Below are positions 14,592-47,352 of a stretch of DNA of 64,000 nt, one piece after another. The notes under the pieces were generated by a model that saw only the letters and a list, made by a program, of their open reading frames with translations, did not search any database and was not told the origin of the DNA. Within the stretch, counting starts at the first letter, position 1. The number at the start of each line of letters is the position of its first letter. Origin of the DNA: Escherichia coli (GTDB lineage Bacteria; Pseudomonadota; Gammaproteobacteria; Enterobacterales; Enterobacteriaceae); the NCBI RefSeq assembly GCF_002854065.1, contig NZ_CP024147.1; one strand, 5' to 3'. The position numbers and the translations under genes were made by a program.

Positions 14592-15347
14592 TCAGCATTT
14601 TGGCTTGCTGCCCTGCGGCGGCAAGTAACGTAGCGGATCAATTGCCGTTGCACGGTAACGAATCTGGAAATGCAGGCGAACAGATGCCGCATCCGTGCTC
14701 CCCATGGTGGCGATTTTTTGCCCAGCCTTCACGCTTTGCCCATTATTTACCAGCATCGTGTCATTATGGGCGTAAGCCGTAATGTAATCTTCACTGTGTT
14801 TAATCATGATGAGATTACCGTAGCCACGCAGCTGGTTGCCCACATACACCACCTTTCCTGCACCCGCGGCGTAAATAGGTGTACCCCGTGGAGCAGAGAT
14901 ATCAATCCCTTTATTGCCGCCATCTGCTGTCGAATACGGCATGATAACTTTCCCTGTCGTTGGCCATAACCAACAACGTTGCCCTACTGGCGGCCAGGAA
15001 GATTTCGGTACCGCTGATGACGGTGTAACCGATGCGGTTTTGGTCGTTGATTTGGCGGTTGATTTACGTGTACTACTGCTACTTTTCGCCCCACCCAGTT
15101 TTAGTTTCTGACCAACTTCAATGGTGTAAGGGGGGGAAATGCCGTTCAGTCGCGCCAGCTCTTTTACGCTGGTTCCCGTGGTGCGCGAAATACGATATAG
15201 CGTATCCCCCCGTTTCACGGTGTAAACGGAGCCGGAATACGTTCCTGTATCGGATGATTTGCTACCCGAACAGCCCGCCAAAAGCAGTCCAACCGATAAC
15301 AACATCACGATACCCAGAGATTTTTTATTCAGGCGTCCCGCACTCAA
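14592..15347 (-). CDS. ygeR: LysM/M23-peptidase-family lipoprotein
   Basis: Lipoprotein signal (LLLAGCSG), LysM region, C-terminal M23 fold; TTG start at 15347 preceded by GAGGAAAG (the track extends to another TTG at 15371). Confidence 0.85.
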   Translation of the reverse strand: MSAGRLNKKSLGIVMLLSVGLLLAGCSGSKSSDTGTYSGSVYTVKRGDTLYRISRTTGTSVKELARLNGISPPYTIEVGQKLKLGGAKSSSSTRKSTAKSTTKTASVTPSSAVPKSSWPPVGQRCWLWPTTGKVIMPYSTADGGNKGIDISAPRGTPIYAAGAGKVVYVGNQLRGYGNLIMIKHSEDYITAYAHNDTMLVNNGQSVKAGQKIATMGSTDAASVRLHFQIRYRATAIDPLRYLPPQGSKPKC

Positions 15348-15489
15348 AATCTTTCCTCGCTTAAAAAACAAGACGCCATATCATAGCAGCCAGCCTCTTG
15401 ATACCCAATCTCTTGCTTCTGGAAAAACGCGGTAGGTGATGCTGCCAACTTACTGATTTAGTGTATGATGGTGTTTTTGAGGTGCTCCA

Positions 15490-15765
15490 GTGGCTTCTGT
15501 TTCTATCAGCTGTCCCTCCTGTTCAGCTACTGACGGGGTGGTGCGTAACGGCAAAAGCACTGCCGGACATCAGCGCTATCTCTGCTCTCACTGCCGTAAA
15601 ACATGGCAACTGCAGTTCACTTACACCGCTTCTCAACCCGGTACGCACCAGAAAATCATTGATATGGCCATGAATGGCGTTGGATGCCGGGCAACCGCCC
15701 GCATTATGGGCGTTGGCCTCAACACGATTTTCCGCCATTTAAAAAACTCAGGCCGCAGTCGGTAA
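15490..15765 (+). CDS. insA: IS1 protein InsA
   Basis: Protein identical to the other two InsA copies; GTG start. Confidence 0.95.
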
Positions 15766-16187
15766 CCTCGCGCATACAGCCGGGCAGTGACGTCATCGTC
15801 TGCGCGGAAATGGACGAACAGTGGGGATACGTCGGGGCTAAATCGCGCCAGCGCTGGCTGTTTTACGCGTATGACAGGCTCCGGAAGACGGTTGTTGCGC
15901 ACGTATTCGGTGAACGCACTATGGCGACGCTGGGGCGTCTTATGAGCCTGCTGTCACCCTTTGACGTGGTGATATGGATGACGGATGGCTGGCCGCTGTA
16001 TGAATCCCGCCTGAAGGGAAAGCTGCACGTAATCAGCAAGCGATATACGCAGCGAATTGAGCGGCATAACCTGAATCTGAGGCAGCACCTGGCACGGCTG
16101 GGACGGAAGTCGCTGTCGTTCTCAAAATCGGTGGAGCTGCATGACAAAGTCATCGGGCATTATCTGAACATAAAACACTATCAATAA
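15684..16187 (+). CDS. insB: IS1 transposase InsB
   Basis: Protein identical to the other two InsB copies. Confidence 0.95.
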
Positions 16188-16468
16188 GTTGGAGTCATTA
16201 CCAACGCGGTAATAGAGAAAGAGGTTAATTTCATTTGGCAAAGGGAAGTATCATCAGCAAAATTTTCGCTGTAGAGGTATCGAATTTCCTGACTTTTTTA
16301 CCCTATTTCCCATCCTGATGCGTAATAATCCCAATTTATCACATTGATTTTATCGCCACTCATATTGATACGTATCACTGTCCCTATTCAGAGTCCTGTT
16401 TCGTATCATATCTGTGTTTTTTTAACGTCATCACACTTCCTTCCTCCCCTAACGCTTATCGTCGTTTC

Positions 16469-16484
16469 TGGCGTAAATCTTGCC
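16469..16484 (+). promoter_or_regulatory. Candidate sigma-54 (-24/-12) promoter upstream of xdhA
   Basis: TGGCGTAAATCTTGCC: GG at 16470-16471 and GC at 16482-16483 with canonical spacing and TTGC at -12; about 55 bp upstream of the xdhA start. Confidence 0.5.
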
Positions 16485-16539
16485 TGCTTAGACTAAATCT
16501 TTGCCATAAGAACCAAATGTTCAAATCGAGGGGATTTCT

Positions 16540-18837
16540 ATGGAAGCGCGGGAAGCAACCGCTACGGGTGAATCATGCATGCGCGTTGATGCCATTGCTA
16601 AGGTCACCGGGCGGGCACGATATACTGACGATTATGTTATGGCGGGCATGTGTTATGCGAAATATGTACGTAGCCCTATCGCACATGGTTATGCCGTAAG
16701 TATTAATGATGAACAAGCCAGAAGTTTACCAGGCGTACTGGCGATTTTTACCTGGGAAGATGTGCCTGATATCCCATTCGCTACAGCTGGGCATGCATGG
16801 ACACTTGACGAAAACAAGCGCGATACCGCCGATCGCGCACTGCTAACTCGCCATGTTCGTCATCATGGTGACGCCGTTGCCATCGTCGTGGCCCGCGATG
16901 AACTCACGGCAGAAAAAGCGGCGCAATTGGTCAGCATTGAGTGGCAAGAATTACCCGTTATCACCACGCCAGAAGCGGCGCTGGCAGAGGACGCTGCACC
17001 AATCCATAACGGCGGCAATTTACTGAAACAAAGCACGATGTCGACGGGCAATGTCCAACAAACAATCGATGCCGCCGACTACCAGGTACAGGGGCACTAT
17101 CAGACTCCCGTTATTCAACATTGTCACATGGAAAGCGTAACATCGCTGGCGTGGATGGAGGATGACTCGCGAATTACCATCGTTTCCAGCACCCAGATCC
17201 CGCACATTGTTCGCCGCGTGGTTGGTCAGGCGCTGGATATTCCCTGGTCATGCGTACGAGTCATCAAACCATTTGTCGGTGGCGGTTTTGGTAATAAACA
17301 GGATGTACTGGAAGAGCCAATGGCGGCATTCCTGACCAGCAAGCTTGGCGGCATTCCGGTGAAAGTTTCCCTTAGCCGTGAAGAGTGTTTCCTCGCAACC
17401 CGTACCCGCCACGCTTTTACTATTGACGGGCAAATGGGCGTGAGCCGCGACGGAACATTGAAAGGTTATAGTCTGGATGTTCTGTCTAACACCGGCGCTT
17501 ATGCATCTCACGGGCACTCCATCGCTTCTGCGGGGGGGAATAAAGTCGCTTACCTTTATCCTCGTTGTGCCTACGCTTACAGTTCAAAGACCTGCTATAC
17601 CAACCTCCCCTCGGCTGGTGCGATGCGTGGTTATGGCGCGCCACAAGTCGTATTTGCCGTTGAGTCTATGCTTGATGACGCCGCGACAGCGTTAGGTATT
17701 GATCCTGTTGAAATTCGTTTACGCAACGCCGCACGCGAAGGAGATGCTAATCCGCTCACGGGCAAACGTATTTACAGCGCAGGGTTGCCGGAGTGTCTTG
17801 AAAAAGGCCGGAAAATCTTTGAATGGGAAAAACGCCGTGTAGAATGCCAGAACCAGCAAGGCAATTTACGCCGCGGCGTTGGCGTCGCCTGTTTTAGCTA
17901 CACCTCTAATACCTGGCCTGTCGGCGTAGAAATAGCAGGCGCGCGCCTTCTGATGAATCAGGATGGAACCATCAACGTGCAAAGCGGCGCGACGGAAATC
18001 GGTCAGGGTGCCGACACCGTCTTCTCGCAAATGGTGGCAGAAACCGTGGGGGTTCCGGTCAGCGACGTTCGCGTTATTTCAACACAAGATACCGACGTTA
18101 CGCCGTTCGATCCCGGCGCATTTGCCTCACGCCAGAGCTATGTTGCTGCGCCTGCGCTGCGCAGTGCGGCACTGTTATTAAAAGAGAAAATCATCGCTCA
18201 CGCCGCAGTCATGCTACATCAGTCAGCGATGAATCTGACCCTGATAAAAGGCCATATCGTGCTGGTTGAACGACCGGAAGAGCCGTTAATGTCGTTAAAA
18301 GATTTGGCGATGGACGCTTTCTACCACCCTGAACGCGGCGGGCAGCTCTCTGCTGAAAGCTCCATCAAAACCACCACTAACCCACCGGCGTTCGGCTGTA
18401 CCTTTGTTGATCTGACGGTCGATATTGCGCTGTGCAAAGTCACCATCAACCGCATCCTCAACGTTCATGATTCGGGGCATATTCTAAATCCGCTGCTGGC
18501 AGAAGGTCAGGTACACGGCGGAATGGGAATGGGCATTGGCTGGGCGCTATTTGAAGAGATGATCATCGATGCGAAAAGCGGCGTGGTCCGTAACCCCAAT
18601 CTGCTGGATTACAAAATGCCGACCATGCCGGATCTGCCACAACTGGAAAGCGCGTTCGTCGAAATCAATGAGCCGCAATCCGCATACGGACATAAGTCAC
18701 TGGGTGAGCCACCAATAATTCCTGTTGCCGCTGCTATTCGTAACGCGGTGAAGATGGCTACCGGTGTTGCAATCAATACACTGCCGCTGACGCCAAAACG
18801 GTTATATGAAGAGTTTCATCTGGCAGGATTGATTTGA
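16540..18837 (+). CDS. xdhA: Xanthine dehydrogenase, molybdopterin-binding subunit
   Basis: 765-aa ORF; GAGGGG Shine-Dalgarno before the ATG at 16540; an alternative start at 16579 (MRVDAIAKVTGRARYTDDY) gives 752 aa. Confidence 0.92.
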   Translation: MEAREATATGESCMRVDAIAKVTGRARYTDDYVMAGMCYAKYVRSPIAHGYAVSINDEQARSLPGVLAIFTWEDVPDIPFATAGHAWTLDENKRDTADRALLTRHVRHHGDAVAIVVARDELTAEKAAQLVSIEWQELPVITTPEAALAEDAAPIHNGGNLLKQSTMSTGNVQQTIDAADYQVQGHYQTPVIQHCHMESVTSLAWMEDDSRITIVSSTQIPHIVRRVVGQALDIPWSCVRVIKPFVGGGFGNKQDVLEEPMAAFLTSKLGGIPVKVSLSREECFLATRTRHAFTIDGQMGVSRDGTLKGYSLDVLSNTGAYASHGHSIASAGGNKVAYLYPRCAYAYSSKTCYTNLPSAGAMRGYGAPQVVFAVESMLDDAATALGIDPVEIRLRNAAREGDANPLTGKRIYSAGLPECLEKGRKIFEWEKRRVECQNQQGNLRRGVGVACFSYTSNTWPVGVEIAGARLLMNQDGTINVQSGATEIGQGADTVFSQMVAETVGVPVSDVRVISTQDTDVTPFDPGAFASRQSYVAAPALRSAALLLKEKIIAHAAVMLHQSAMNLTLIKGHIVLVERPEEPLMSLKDLAMDAFYHPERGGQLSAESSIKTTTNPPAFGCTFVDLTVDIALCKVTINRILNVHDSGHILNPLLAEGQVHGGMGMGIGWALFEEMIIDAKSGVVRNPNLLDYKMPTMPDLPQLESAFVEINEPQSAYGHKSLGEPPIIPVAAAIRNAVKMATGVAINTLPLTPKRLYEEFHLAGLI

Positions 18838-18847
18838 AGATAACATC

Positions 18848-19726
18848 ATGTTTGATTTTGCTTCTTACCATCGCGCAGCAACCCTTGCCGATGCCATCAA
18901 CCTGCTGGCTGACAACCCGCAGGCCAAACTGCTCGCCGGTGGCACTGACGTACTGATTCAGCTCCACCATCACAATGACCGTTATCGCCATATTGTTGAT
19001 ATTCATAATCTGGCGGAGCTGCGGGGAATTACGCTGGCGGAAGATGGCTCGCTACGTATCGGCTCTGCAACGACATTTACCCAGCTAATAGAAGATCCTA
19101 TAACTCAACGTCATCTCCCGGCGTTATGTGCTGCGGCCTCGTCCATTGCTGGACCGCAGATCCGTAACGTCGCTACCTACGGTGGAAATATTTGCAACGG
19201 TGCCACCAGCGCAGATTCTGCCACGCCAACGCTCATTTATGACGCGAAACTGGAGATCCACTCCCCACGCAGTGTTCGTTTCGTCCCGATTAATGGCTTT
19301 CACACCGGGCCGGGCAAAGTGTCTCTTGAGCATGACGAAATCCTTGTCGCCTTTCATTTTCCGCCCCAGCCGAAAGAACACGTGGGCAGCGCGCATTTTA
19401 AATATGCCATGCGCGACGCAATGGATATTTCAACGATTGGCTGCGCCGCACATTGCCGACTGGATAACGGCAATTTCAGCGAATTACGTCTGGCATTTGG
19501 TGTTGCCGCGCCAACGCCGATTCGCTGCCAACATGCCGAACAGACTGCACAAAATGCGCCATTAAACCTGCAAACGCTTGAAGCTATCAGCGAATCTGTC
19601 CTGCAAGATGTCGCCCCGCGTTCTTCATGGCGGGCCAGTAAAGAGTTTCGTCTGCATCTCATCCAGACGATGACCAAAAAAGTGATTAGCGAAGCCGTCG
19701 CCGCGGCGGGGGGAAAATTGCAATGA
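18848..19726 (+). CDS. xdhB: Xanthine dehydrogenase, FAD-binding subunit
   Basis: 292-aa ORF; FAD-binding CO-dehydrogenase-flavoprotein-type fold ([11 protein letters not shown]). Confidence 0.92.
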
Positions 19727-20202
19727 ATCACAGCGAAACAATTACCATCGAATGCACCATTAACGGGATGCCTTTTCAGCTTCATGCCGCACCAGGCACG
19801 CCGCTCTCGGAATTACTCCGCGAACAAGGACTGCTAAGTGTCAAACAAGGGTGCTGCGTGGGTGAATGTGGTGCCTGTACGGTGCTGGTCGACGGCACAG
19901 CAATAGACAGTTGCTTATACCTTGCCGCCTGGGCTGAAGGAAAAGAGATCCGCACGCTGGAAGGTGAAGCGAAAGGCGGAAAACTTTCTCATGTTCAGCA
20001 GGCTTATGCGAAATCCGGCGCAGTGCAGTGCGGGTTTTGTACGCCTGGCCTGATTATGGCTACCACGGCAATGCTGGCGAAACCACGCGAGAAGCCATTA
20101 ACCATTACGGAAATTCGTCGCGGACTGGCGGGAAATCTTTGTCGCTGCACGGGGTATCAGATGATTGTAAATACAGTTCTGGATTGCGAGAAAACGAAGT
20201 AA
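19723..20202 (+). CDS. xdhC: Xanthine dehydrogenase, 2Fe-2S subunit
   Basis: 159-aa ORF with two Cys clusters ([11 protein letters not shown]; CGFCTPG ... CRCTGY); ATGA overlap with xdhB. Confidence 0.92.
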
Positions 20203-20241: not shown

Positions 20242-22020
20242 TTATGTGTTTAACAACTCATATTTCTTAATCTTGCGATAGAGCGTAGCAATGCCGATGC
20301 CCAGTTCATCAGCAACTTGCTTCTTGCTGTTATGACGTGAAAGCGCCTCGCGGATCATTTGCTTTTCCATCTCCTCCAGCGCCGTGCCGCCCGCATCATC
20401 GAGTGACAGGTGTGCCTCAGTGACCTCTGTTACATCACTTTGCTCCGTTGTGCCATTATTCAGCAGATTTGGCGGCAATAGCGTGCTGTCGATAACTTCA
20501 CCTGAAGGAACAACGTTAACCAGATATTCCATCAAATTGCTTAACTCGCGCAGGTTTCCGGGCCAACGATGCTTACGCAATATTTCGACGACATCGGGAG
20601 CAATGCCAGGATAAACCGATCCCAGACGACGGGTATGCAGATGTAAAAAGTAATGCACCAGTAGTTCAATATCTTCCTGACGTTCACGCAGCGGTGGCAG
20701 AGTTATCGGGATAACATTAAGTCGGTAGAAGAGATCTTCGCGGAATTTACCTTCGGCAATGAACTGGGCCAAATTCTGGTTAGTTGCAGAAATGATGCGA
20801 ATGTCGACTTGTATTGGGCTACTGGCACCAATCGGCAGAATTTCACGTGCCTCAATAGCGCGCAGTAATTTAGCCTGCAACATTAATGGCATATCACCTA
20901 TTTCATCTAGAAACAGCGTGCCCGTATTCGCCGCCTGAATCAACCCTGTTTTACCGTTGGCAGAAGCGCCAGTAAATGCGCCTTTAACATAACCGAACAG
21001 TTCGCTCTCCAGAAGCTGCTCCGGAATCGCGGCACAGTTGATAGCAATAAAGGGTTTATTCCGTCTTCCGCTCAACTTATGGATTGCACGGGCGACGACT
21101 TCTTTACCCGTGCCGCTTTCACCAACCACCATAACGCTGGATGGGCTGGGTGCAATACGGCTAATGAGTCGTTTTAATTGCCGCATAACACGGCACTCGC
21201 CAACCAATTGTTCAATATGCGGTTCATCAGGTGCATTTGCTACAGAAAAACTGGTATGCGATTGGTGAAACGCCATTAAAAATAATTGTCGGCCCTGAAT
21301 GTTATGCAATTGGCCAATGATTAATTCACTTTTATCGTCCCACGAAACAATATGCTGCATATGTCCATGGGTAAAATTACTCTCAAATGTTAATGGTCTG
21401 AAACGGATAGGTTTCCCAATAATATTATTTTGTACAATACCAAGTGTTTTTAAGGCAGTCTGATTAACAAACTGAACCCGACTTTCATCATCAACAACTA
21501 ATACGCCCTGATCCATATTATCGATCATGGTCGCGAATATTTTACTGATGTTATCTCCTGGCCCCTGATCCTCCAGAAGTTTCGAAACAAAAATGGTGGA
21601 TATATGGCGAACATAATCAGAAAATTCGCGTAAATTATCACTGATATGCTCTTGTTGCTCGTGGGTAACGGCAATCAAACTTATCACCCCAACACAACGA
21701 TCCTGTAAAATGACAGGCGTACCCAGAAATGCTTTTTCGCGGCAATTTTCTTTACTATCGCAACCTTCGCAAAGGGGATCGAAGCGAGACTGTGTCACAA
21801 CTTTTTCAGTTTTCGTTTCCAGGACGTGGCGGAGCAGGCGTGAGTTGCCGCTCAACTGGCGACCAAGAAACTTCCCATACGCGCCAGTTCCGGCGACGCG
21901 ACACAAGTTTTCATCAACGATCTCAACCTCAAGCTGCAAAACGCTGGCAAGCATTCTGGCAAAACGCTGAATTGTCGGTTGAATTTGCATCAATACTGAC
22001 TGCGTAGTAGCAAGCTCCAT
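20242..22020 (-). CDS. ygeV: Sigma-54-dependent transcriptional activator (enhancer-binding protein)
   Basis: 592-aa ORF with central AAA+ domain (VVGESGTGKE Walker A; GAFTGA motif) and C-terminal HTH. Confidence 0.92.
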   Translation of the reverse strand: MELATTQSVLMQIQPTIQRFARMLASVLQLEVEIVDENLCRVAGTGAYGKFLGRQLSGNSRLLRHVLETKTEKVVTQSRFDPLCEGCDSKENCREKAFLGTPVILQDRCVGVISLIAVTHEQQEHISDNLREFSDYVRHISTIFVSKLLEDQGPGDNISKIFATMIDNMDQGVLVVDDESRVQFVNQTALKTLGIVQNNIIGKPIRFRPLTFESNFTHGHMQHIVSWDDKSELIIGQLHNIQGRQLFLMAFHQSHTSFSVANAPDEPHIEQLVGECRVMRQLKRLISRIAPSPSSVMVVGESGTGKEVVARAIHKLSGRRNKPFIAINCAAIPEQLLESELFGYVKGAFTGASANGKTGLIQAANTGTLFLDEIGDMPLMLQAKLLRAIEAREILPIGASSPIQVDIRIISATNQNLAQFIAEGKFREDLFYRLNVIPITLPPLRERQEDIELLVHYFLHLHTRRLGSVYPGIAPDVVEILRKHRWPGNLRELSNLMEYLVNVVPSGEVIDSTLLPPNLLNNGTTEQSDVTEVTEAHLSLDDAGGTALEEMEKQMIREALSRHNSKKQVADELGIGIATLYRKIKKYELLNT

Positions 22021-22389
22021 AGCTTTACCTTCCAGACTTACTTAAAAGTCGATCATTGAAGACGTTGATGGTTCACAGATCATGATGATATTAACTCAGG
22101 CGAAATTGGCTTTGATAAAAACATAAGATTTTTATCACTTTCTAATGAAATTATGGAAGAGATATCACATTTCTATATCAATATGAGAATTACGGCGGTG
22201 AGTTTATCAAACTGACGAGGGATAGCCTGCCCCTTTATCTTATTTCTGATACTTAGCAGCAAATAAATAACGCAATAAAAAAAGCCAAACGTTTTCGTAT
22301 TTTACAAACAACCGGAAGCTAGCATCAATTTGTGATCAACCCCACACATTATCCGTCAAATTAGTCTTTTGCAGCCCCGTGGATAATTC

Positions 22390-22405
22390 TGGCACACTTA
22401 TTGTT
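22390..22405 (+). promoter_or_regulatory. Candidate sigma-54 promoter upstream of ygeW (non-canonical -12)
   Basis: TGGCACACTTATTGTT: perfect -24 TGGCAC, but -12 is TTGT rather than TTGC; about 90 bp upstream of ygeW. Confidence 0.3.
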
Positions 22406-23743: not shown

Positions 23744-24940
23744 ATGTCCGTTTTCTCATTGAAGATTGATATCGCCGATAACAAATTTTTCAACGGCGAA
23801 ACATCACCGCTCTTTTCGCAAAGCCAGGCCAAACTGGCGCGCCAGTTCCACCAGAAAATAGCTGGTTATCGCCCAACACCGCTTTGTGCGCTGGACGATC
23901 TCGCAAACCTTTTTGGTGTGAAGAAAATTCTTGTCAAAGACGAATCAAAACGATTCGGTCTGAACGCCTTCAAAATGCTCGGCGGTGCGTACGCCATCGC
24001 TCAATTATTGTGTGAAAAATATCATCTTGATATCGAAACGCTGTCATTTGAGCACCTGAAAAATGCCATCGGCGAAAAAATGACTTTCGCGACCACCACC
24101 GACGGCAACCACGGGCGCGGTGTGGCGTGGGCAGCGCAGCAACTCGGACAGAATGCGGTGATTTACATGCCGAAAGGTTCTGCTCAGGAACGCGTTGACG
24201 CCATTCTGAACCTCGGTGCCGAGTGCATCGTCACGGATATGAACTATGACGATACCGTTCGCCTGACCATGCAACACGCGCAGCAGCACGGCTGGGAAGT
24301 GGTACAGGACACGGCATGGGAAGGTTACACCAAAATCCCAACCTGGATCATGCAAGGCTACGCAACCCTGGCAGATGAAGCCGTCGAGCAAATGCGTGAA
24401 ATGGGCGTAACCCCGACGCACGTTCTGCTGCAAGCCGGTGTCGGAGCAATGGCCGGTGGTGTGCTGGGTTATCTGGTCGACGTCTATAGCCCGCAAAATC
24501 TGCACAGCATTATTGTTGAACCTGACAAAGCTGACTGTATTTATCGCTCCGGCGTCAAAGGCGACATCGTCAACGTTGGCGGTGATATGGCCACCATCAT
24601 GGCGGGCCTGGCCTGTGGCGAACCTAACCCGCTGGGCTGGGAAATCCTACGTAACTGCGCCACCCAATTCATCTCCTGCCAGGACAGCGTTGCCGCATTA
24701 GGTATGCGCGTGCTGGGTAATCCGTACGGCAACGACCCGCGCATCATCTCCGGTGAATCCGGCGCTGTCGGTTTGGGCGTTCTCGCGGCGGTTCATTATC
24801 ACCCGCAACGTCAAAGCCTGATGGAAAAACTGGCGCTGAACAAAGATGCCGTAGTGCTGGTTATCAGCACTGAAGGTGACACCGACGTGAAGCACTATCG
24901 CGAAGTTGTCTGGGAAGGCAAACACGCTGTAGCACCTTAA
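23744..24940 (+). CDS. ygeX: Diaminopropionate ammonia-lyase (PLP-dependent, fold type II)
   Basis: 398-aa ORF; AAGGA Shine-Dalgarno upstream. Confidence 0.9.
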   Translation: MSVFSLKIDIADNKFFNGETSPLFSQSQAKLARQFHQKIAGYRPTPLCALDDLANLFGVKKILVKDESKRFGLNAFKMLGGAYAIAQLLCEKYHLDIETLSFEHLKNAIGEKMTFATTTDGNHGRGVAWAAQQLGQNAVIYMPKGSAQERVDAILNLGAECIVTDMNYDDTVRLTMQHAQQHGWEVVQDTAWEGYTKIPTWIMQGYATLADEAVEQMREMGVTPTHVLLQAGVGAMAGGVLGYLVDVYSPQNLHSIIVEPDKADCIYRSGVKGDIVNVGGDMATIMAGLACGEPNPLGWEILRNCATQFISCQDSVAALGMRVLGNPYGNDPRIISGESGAVGLGVLAAVHYHPQRQSLMEKLALNKDAVVLVISTEGDTDVKHYREVVWEGKHAVAP

Positions 24941-31792: not shown

Positions 31793-32016
31793 AAAACGTA
31801 GTTAAACGATTGCGTTCAAATATTTAACCCCTCCAGCACTCTTTATCATAATGATAAGGAATCACTGATTTTGAGAAAAGAGAAAAAGTGATAAATGGGC
31901 TGGCAATAATAATTTTCAGGAGTGATTTTAATTCTCATTTGGCACCTGTGAGTTCATTCACAAAAAGCCCTTAAGTTTCGAGCCGCCTCACATTTTTTTA
32001 TATTTCCCGCCAAACC

Positions 32017-32032
32017 TGGCAAGAGTGGTGCG
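32017..32032 (+). promoter_or_regulatory. Candidate sigma-54 promoter upstream of ygfK
   Basis: TGGCAAGAGTGGTGCG: GG and GC at canonical spacing, -12 region GTGC; about 85 bp upstream of ygfK. Confidence 0.35.
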
Positions 32033-32113
32033 ATTGTTGCTCTATCCCCCTAAACCACCGGATTTCTCAACACCGGTCACTCAATGATATCTGTATAAGC
32101 TAAGGAGAGGGTT

Positions 32114-46985: not shown

Positions 46986-47336
46986 TTGCATCCCTTTCAT
47001 TTAATGAGTTATGTCTTCTCAAATTTCGCGATGCAATAAACGGGCATATATTAGGTAGCATGACCGTTTTAATTATAATTTTGCGACTGAGTTCAAATTA
47101 TTGCCCCTCAATCTATGCCGCTTTCATTATTTCAACATTGCCGATCAAAAGAGCGCTATCCAGATAAAAACGATTAAATGCGAGAGTGCGACATGCCAGA
47201 ATGATTAATGAAATATCAATATGAGAAAATTACAGATAATTCCATTGTCAGGTTCTCTTGTCATTTTCGTGGTTTAAGCACGATTATGTGATTGCCTCCG
47301 CAATTCCTGTCTCTAACTCCCCTTCCTCGCAAAAAC

Positions 47337-47352
47337 TGGCACTCCACGAGCA
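47337..47352 (+). promoter_or_regulatory. Candidate sigma-54 promoter upstream of uacT
   Basis: TGGCACTCCACGAGCA: perfect -24 TGGCAC, GC at canonical -12 spacing; about 70 bp upstream of the uacT start. Confidence 0.45.

Follow-up and report, generated by a model that had tools for sequence, protein, structure and literature searches.

Sigma-54-type motif upstream of xdhABC

Does the sigma-54-type motif in front of xdhABC drive transcription of this operon, and which activator would work on it? The stretch of E. coli DNA that we analyzed (64,000 nt, hereafter the window) had been described by a sequence-only reading as carrying TGGCGT-N5-TTGCC, with canonically spaced GG and GC doublets, approximately 55 bp 5' of xdhA. 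Inspection of the sequence confirmed this description: TGGCGTAAATCTTGCC was read at exactly 16469-16484 on the plus strand, with GG at 16470-71 and GC at 16482-83, giving the canonical GG-N10-GC spacing. The motif is intergenic and oriented toward xdhA, and its distance from the gene is typical of a sigma-54 promoter; the RefSeq xdhA ATG (16540) lies 55 nt past the end of the motif, and the older K-12 start (16579) lies 94 nt past it. The features of the operon are as follows, with the genes taken from open reading frames and from the RefSeq annotation of matching E. coli records.

16468..16484, plus strand: sigma-54 (-24/-12) promoter of xdhABC, cTGGCGTAAATCTTGCC, read as cTGGCGT-AAATC-TTGCC
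16495, plus strand: predicted start of transcription, 12 nt 3' of the C in the GC doublet
16528..16542, plus strand: Shine-Dalgarno GAGGGG and ATG (16540), with the AG of the Shine-Dalgarno invariant across genera
16540-18837, plus strand: xdhA
18848-19726, plus strand: xdhB
19723-20202, plus strand: xdhC

The predicted transcription start follows the convention of Bonocora et al. (motif centre plus 19 bp downstream) and would give a leader of 45 nt before ATG 16540. The 84-bp distance given by Bonocora et al., when counted from 16495, lands on the K-12 start at 16579. A mapped 5' end of the xdhA transcript was not found in the searchable literature. The two annotated xdhA starts, the RefSeq ATG at 16540 (765 aa) and the older K-12 start at 16579 (752 aa), are 39 nt apart. 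The longer predicted form is favoured because GAGGGG, 6 nt before 16540, is kept across genera and the ATG itself in most of them.

The motif was scored with a weight matrix built from 46 published sigma-54 ChIP sites, from which the four sites of this region had been left out. The xdhA site scored 14.2 bits, outscored 10 of the 46 training sites, and was the second-best match on both strands of the window, the first being the ygeW promoter. In the 337-nt intergenic region, no other match on either strand reached 6 bits, and approximately 0.005 equally good matches on the correct strand are expected there by chance. However, dinucleotide-preserving shuffles yielded approximately two matches at this score per 64-kb window, and the bare core TGGC-N8-TGC was not enriched in the window (18 found vs 14.5 expected). 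Scoring, which the sequence-only reading had proposed as a check, thus placed the site near the top of the window, but the score alone was not rarer than chance, and the case was therefore rested on position and conservation.

Published evidence for the promoter in K-12

The motif is a real sigma-54 promoter of xdhABC, and it is not a discovery because it has already been catalogued and experimentally supported in K-12. In the K-12 sigma-54 ChIP-seq data of Bonocora et al. (2015), peak OS29, 11-fold above threshold, carries the identical 17-mer (CTGGCGTAAATCTTGCC), and the table of that study flags OS29 as an experimentally confirmed EcoCyc promoter. Zhao, Liu and Burgess (2010) counted xdhA as a new member of the sigma-54 regulon and gave tttcTGGCGTAAATCTTGCCTGctta as its site; in their microarray analysis, xdhA expression rose 4.9-fold on sigma-54 overexpression and changed by -2.1 in an rpoN deletion.

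As Bonocora et al. pointed out, a ChIP peak indicates binding and does not show productive transcription, and many of their sigma-54 sites are not known promoters. Sigma-54 might be bound here in a poised or unproductive state, with transcription of xdhABC coming from another promoter in the intergenic region, of the sigma-70 or sigma-S type; the published glucose repression of the cluster and the CRP site at ygeW would be in keeping with such an arrangement. However, xdhA mRNA followed the sigma-54 level in both directions (Zhao 2010), and the only sigma-70-like match in the region (9/12) was at chance level. The site is also correctly oriented, with a predicted start 45 nt before the ATG and a conserved Shine-Dalgarno sequence, and it forms the most conserved block of the region in 11 genera. 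We therefore regard an unproductive site as very unlikely. An Rfam scan of 15300-16800 gave no matches.

Conservation of the promoter across genera

The window is chromosomal DNA of E. coli type: a match to the segment 16213-16600, annotated as the beginning of xdhA, was present in 5,356 of the 5,426 complete E. coli genomes. When one genome was scanned for each species, 32 loci encoding XdhA relatives were obtained. In 29 of 29 loci scanned, the best sigma-54 match within 400 nt upstream was TGGCGT-N5-TTGCY, located 38-66 nt before the start codon. By pattern search, 33 of the 36 loci fetched carried this sequence at that position; it was missing from a locus truncated at its 5' end, from a fragment of 459 bp and from a distant Chloroflexi homologue. 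Among the loci that contain the xdhA 5' region, it was accordingly kept in 33 of 33, covering 11 genera (Escherichia, Citrobacter, Kluyvera, Atlantibacter, Buttiauxella, Hafnia, Yokenella, Enterobacillus, Klebsiella [K. indica], Trabulsiella and Pluralibacter). The 5-nt spacer takes at least 10 forms and the flanks drift, while TGGCGT and TTGC are invariant. In an intergenic alignment of 15 sequences from 12 genera (mean column identity, 40%), the promoter was the most conserved block. The same alignment contains three more conserved blocks, two of them at the upstream palindromes described below and one between these and the promoter.

16419..16438, plus strand: conserved T-tract and CATCACA block (-76 to -57), with TCAC invariant and the adjacent columns nearly so

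At the mismatch limit applied, neither the IHF nor the CRP consensus was matched in this last block, which may serve as a bending element, as an IHF-like one or as an extra half-site.

The shuffle counts and the unenriched core described above are what would be expected if the motif were a chance match without function. This explanation is refuted by the published ChIP data and the conservation: ChIP-seq and expression data exist for the exact sequence, and all 33 loci keep the -24 and -12 elements unchanged amid diverging surroundings. Its probability is negligible. The claim that the motif is a sigma-54 promoter is thus supported by the published K-12 ChIP-seq data, the response to rpoN and the conservation.

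YgeV as the candidate activator

A gene for a sigma-54 activator, ygeV, had been placed just downstream of the operon, and it was indeed found there.

20242..22020, minus strand: ygeV, sigma-54-dependent activator, 592 aa, directly after xdhC (RefSeq annotation)

YgeV is full length and intact. Pfam analysis detected Sigma54_activat (residues 272-439, E 2e-70), AAA_lid_14, HTH_8 (548-587, E 3e-13) and PAS (162-205), together with a weak GAF match, and a GAFTGA loop is present at residue 347. The protein has the AAA+ sigma-54 interaction domain, the GAFTGA loop and the helix-turn-helix that define this class of activators. No receiver domain was detected in YgeV by Pfam, which suggests an activator that senses a ligand and not a response regulator.

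The ygeV gene adjoins xdhC in Escherichia, Citrobacter, Atlantibacter, Buttiauxella, Yokenella, Klebsiella indica, Trabulsiella and Pluralibacter. Kluyvera, Hafnia and Enterobacillus have the promoter and the palindromes, but ygeV was not found within 6 kb in these three genera. The Pluralibacter locus L030 carries a second sigma-54 activator gene (4978-5769) that ends just 5' of xdhA; its product shares 37% identity with the AAA+/HTH part of YgeV, and the true ygeV is located downstream, on contig L022, the companion of L030.

The YgeV iModulon includes xdhABC with the rest of the cluster and has been taken as a putative YgeV regulon. ygeV has been cited as being involved in urate consumption, and one paper renames YgeV as IsrR and ties it to indole signalling. 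In the searchable literature, no YgeV binding data were found, and no study that directly measured xdhA expression in ygeV mutants. Co-regulation, synteny, the intact domains and a shared enhancer-like palindrome make YgeV a plausible activator of xdhA.

Palindromes upstream of the xdhA promoter

Two imperfect copies of a 13-bp palindrome, TATCA-N3-TGATA, lie upstream of the promoter (centres counted from the predicted start at 16495).

16337..16349, plus strand: palindrome 1, candidate enhancer (YgeV) site, TATCACATTGAtt, centre at -152
16358..16370, plus strand: palindrome 2, acTCATATTGATA, centre at -131, 21 bp from palindrome 1

Both palindromes are kept across genera in the alignment, where they coincide with the conserved islands TATCACATTGA (16337-16347) and CTCATATTGATA (16359-16370) among the 15 sequences from 12 genera. 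Their spacing of 21 bp would put both on one face of the helix. On the minus strand, palindrome 2 reads TATCAATATGAG, a 12-mer that also occurs at ygeW and at ygfT/uacT. The reverse complement of palindrome 1 resembles the IHF core with one mismatch.

An FNR-like sequence, TTGATACGTATCAC (one mismatch), overlaps palindrome 2 at 16365-16378. It is not conserved outside E. coli and was rejected as an FNR site.

Recurrence of the palindrome in the purine and urate cluster

The pattern TATCA-N3-TGA occurred 13 times in the window (1.9 expected), a count reached in none of 100 shuffles. When the whole 13-mer was searched with at most one mismatch, six copies were found in the window (16337, 22078, 22176, 24020, 31844 and 47214), and those at 22078 and 22176 both lie between ygeV and ygeW. 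Five of the six lie 100-350 bp upstream of four ChIP-supported sigma-54 sites; these intervals make up 1.6% of the window, and the binomial P-value is approximately 5e-9, for an interval that was chosen post hoc. The promoters and palindromes outside xdhA are listed below.

22176..22188, plus strand: palindrome TATCAATATGAGA, 213 bp before the ygeW -24 element
22389..22405, plus strand: ygeW sigma-54 promoter, CTGGCACACTTATTGTT, best weight-matrix match in the window (15.9 bits)
31844..31856, plus strand: TATCATAATGATA, a perfect palindrome 181 bp 5' of the ygfK sigma-54 promoter
32025-32041: ygfK sigma-54 promoter, fourth-best weight-matrix match in the window, ChIP-seq site OS31
47032-47048, minus strand: ygfT sigma-54 site, ChIP-seq site OS32
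47214..47226, plus strand: palindrome TATCAATATGAGA between ygfT and uacT, 5' of the sigma-54 site of ygfT

The ygeW promoter corresponds to ChIP-seq site OS30 (Bonocora 2015), and an RpoN gSELEX peak has been reported between ygeV and ygeW. The ygeW palindrome was present in most ygeW-containing loci, 213-214 bp from the promoter in nearly all of them, as TATCAATATGAGA in most genera and as TATCAAATTGATA in Buttiauxella. In the Kluyvera loci, a ygfK-type promoter and its palindrome are arranged relative to each other as at ygfK in the window, and there they lie directly 3' of xdhC.

In the ygfT-uacT region, CTGGCACTCCACGAGCA (47336-47352) lies approximately 70 nt before the uacT start codon and 143 bp downstream of the 47214 palindrome; its -24 element is perfect, its -12 element is poor, and it scores 5.8 bits. 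Given this spacing, the single palindrome at 47214 might serve both divergent genes, ygfT and uacT. A further perfect palindrome, TATCATCTTGATA, is located at 24020-24032 inside the coding region of ygeX (dpaL) and is perfect in Escherichia and Citrobacter loci. Coding constraint alone could account for its retention, or it might serve genes further downstream as an internal enhancer.

These palindromes bear on a further explanation, namely that the sigma-54 promoter is genuine and that its activator is not YgeV, but another protein such as NtrC or FhlA, or several of them, with the palindromes bound by a different factor such as IHF. An NtrC gSELEX peak has been reported inside xdhB/xdhC, and urate breakdown by E. 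coli has been found to depend on formate; the IHF-like core in palindrome 1 and the three genera in which ygeV is not adjacent to xdhC are also compatible with this explanation. However, pattern searches of the intergenic region found no NtrC or CRP site, and the palindromes are symmetric and located at -130 to -330, unlike an IHF site. Moreover, each of the four sigma-54 promoters in the cluster has the palindrome, which is rare elsewhere in the 64 kb, ygeV is syntenic in most genera, and xdhABC co-varies with the YgeV iModulon. An activator other than YgeV is unlikely on this evidence, and YgeV remains the preferred candidate.

No description of the palindrome sequences relevant to E. coli was found among the papers listed in the searchable literature, and the conserved upstream palindrome is the sole element at this locus that may be new. 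Whether TATCA-N3-TGATA is a previously undescribed YgeV enhancer, placed upstream of xdhA, ygeW, ygfK and ygfT/uacT, is in our judgement evenly balanced.

IS1 insertion upstream of xdhA

A complete IS1 element interrupts the region between actS and xdhA in the window.

15435-16202: complete IS1, 768 bp, between actS (ygeR) and xdhA

It is flanked by a 9-bp target duplication, AACGCGGTA, at 15426-34 and 16203-11. The element is upstream of both genes: 88 bp separate it from the actS start and 134 bp from the first xdhA palindrome. Because of this last distance, the conserved regulatory blocks of xdhA are intact. The IS1 junction was shared by none of the 5,426 complete E. coli genomes. Zhao et al. 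(2010) reported a sigma-54 transcript upstream of flhDC that originates from an IS1 end, and the same end faces xdhA here. As a candidate for such a promoter, the best site, at 16098 (CTGGGACGGAAGTCGCT), scored 7.2 bits, below every training site, and was rejected.

The genome closest to the window at the xdhA promoter is that of E. coli strain 100416 (L035). In this strain (about 38362-41478 of L035), ygeW and a truncated ghxQ are separated by an IS1; ygeX through guaD are absent, and xdhABC, ygeV and ygeW are retained.

Proposed mechanism of xdhABC activation

We assign a probability of roughly 80% to the reading in which the motif is the sigma-54 promoter of xdhABC, transcription starts near 16495, and YgeV is the probable activator, acting through the palindromes. 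Sigma-54 RNA polymerase occupies the -24 element TGGCGT and the -12 element TTGCC as a closed complex, which is unable to open the DNA alone and requires an ATP-driven activator bound upstream; transcription would then begin near 16495. The most likely activator is YgeV, with its sensor region (PAS and possibly GAF), its AAA+ domain with GAFTGA and its Fis-type helix-turn-helix. YgeV is predicted to bind both TATCA-N3-TGATA palindromes (-152 and -131) on the same helix face and to reach the promoter by DNA looping, perhaps aided by the T-tract/TCACA block at -76 to -57. The ygeW, ygfK and ygfT promoters are preceded by similar palindromes, so that one regulator could control the whole cluster; YgeV may in this way activate all of the purine and urate catabolic genes.

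Interest in this cluster has grown since gut bacteria use it for uric acid breakdown, which is relevant to gout, and the regulation of the uric-acid cluster genes was described in one recent paper as still poorly understood. If the enhancer assignment is true, TATCA-N3-TGATA would define the YgeV regulon, and one sensor protein would switch on the whole cluster for anaerobic purine and urate degradation. A shared enhancer motif would also provide a direct handle on what YgeV senses and on the engineering of pathway expression.

Comparison with known systems

The xdhA promoter of K-12 is identical to that of the window in its 17-mer, in its position relative to xdhA and in its downstream genes. 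The two differ upstream, where K-12 and the remaining complete E. coli genomes have no IS1 at this site. Within the cluster, the ygeW, ygfK and ygfT promoters resemble that of xdhA in being sigma-54 sites with TATCA-N3-TGATA-type palindromes 130-330 bp upstream, and they belong to the same iModulon. The xdhA site differs from them in carrying TGGCGT instead of TGGCAC at -24, with TTGCC at -12, and in having two adjacent imperfect palindromes, whereas ygeW, ygfK and ygfT have a single one.

PrpR-prpBCDE and NorR-norVW are ligand-sensing sigma-54 activator systems without a receiver domain. In both, the activator is encoded beside its catabolic target operon, as ygeV is beside xdhABC, and the target has a -24/-12 promoter with upstream inverted-repeat enhancers, as at xdhA, where the palindromes are candidate enhancers. 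An N-terminal sensor replaces the phosphorylation domain in PrpR and NorR, and the domain architecture of YgeV is the same in this respect. For YgeV (IsrR), one paper has instead made a link to indole signalling.
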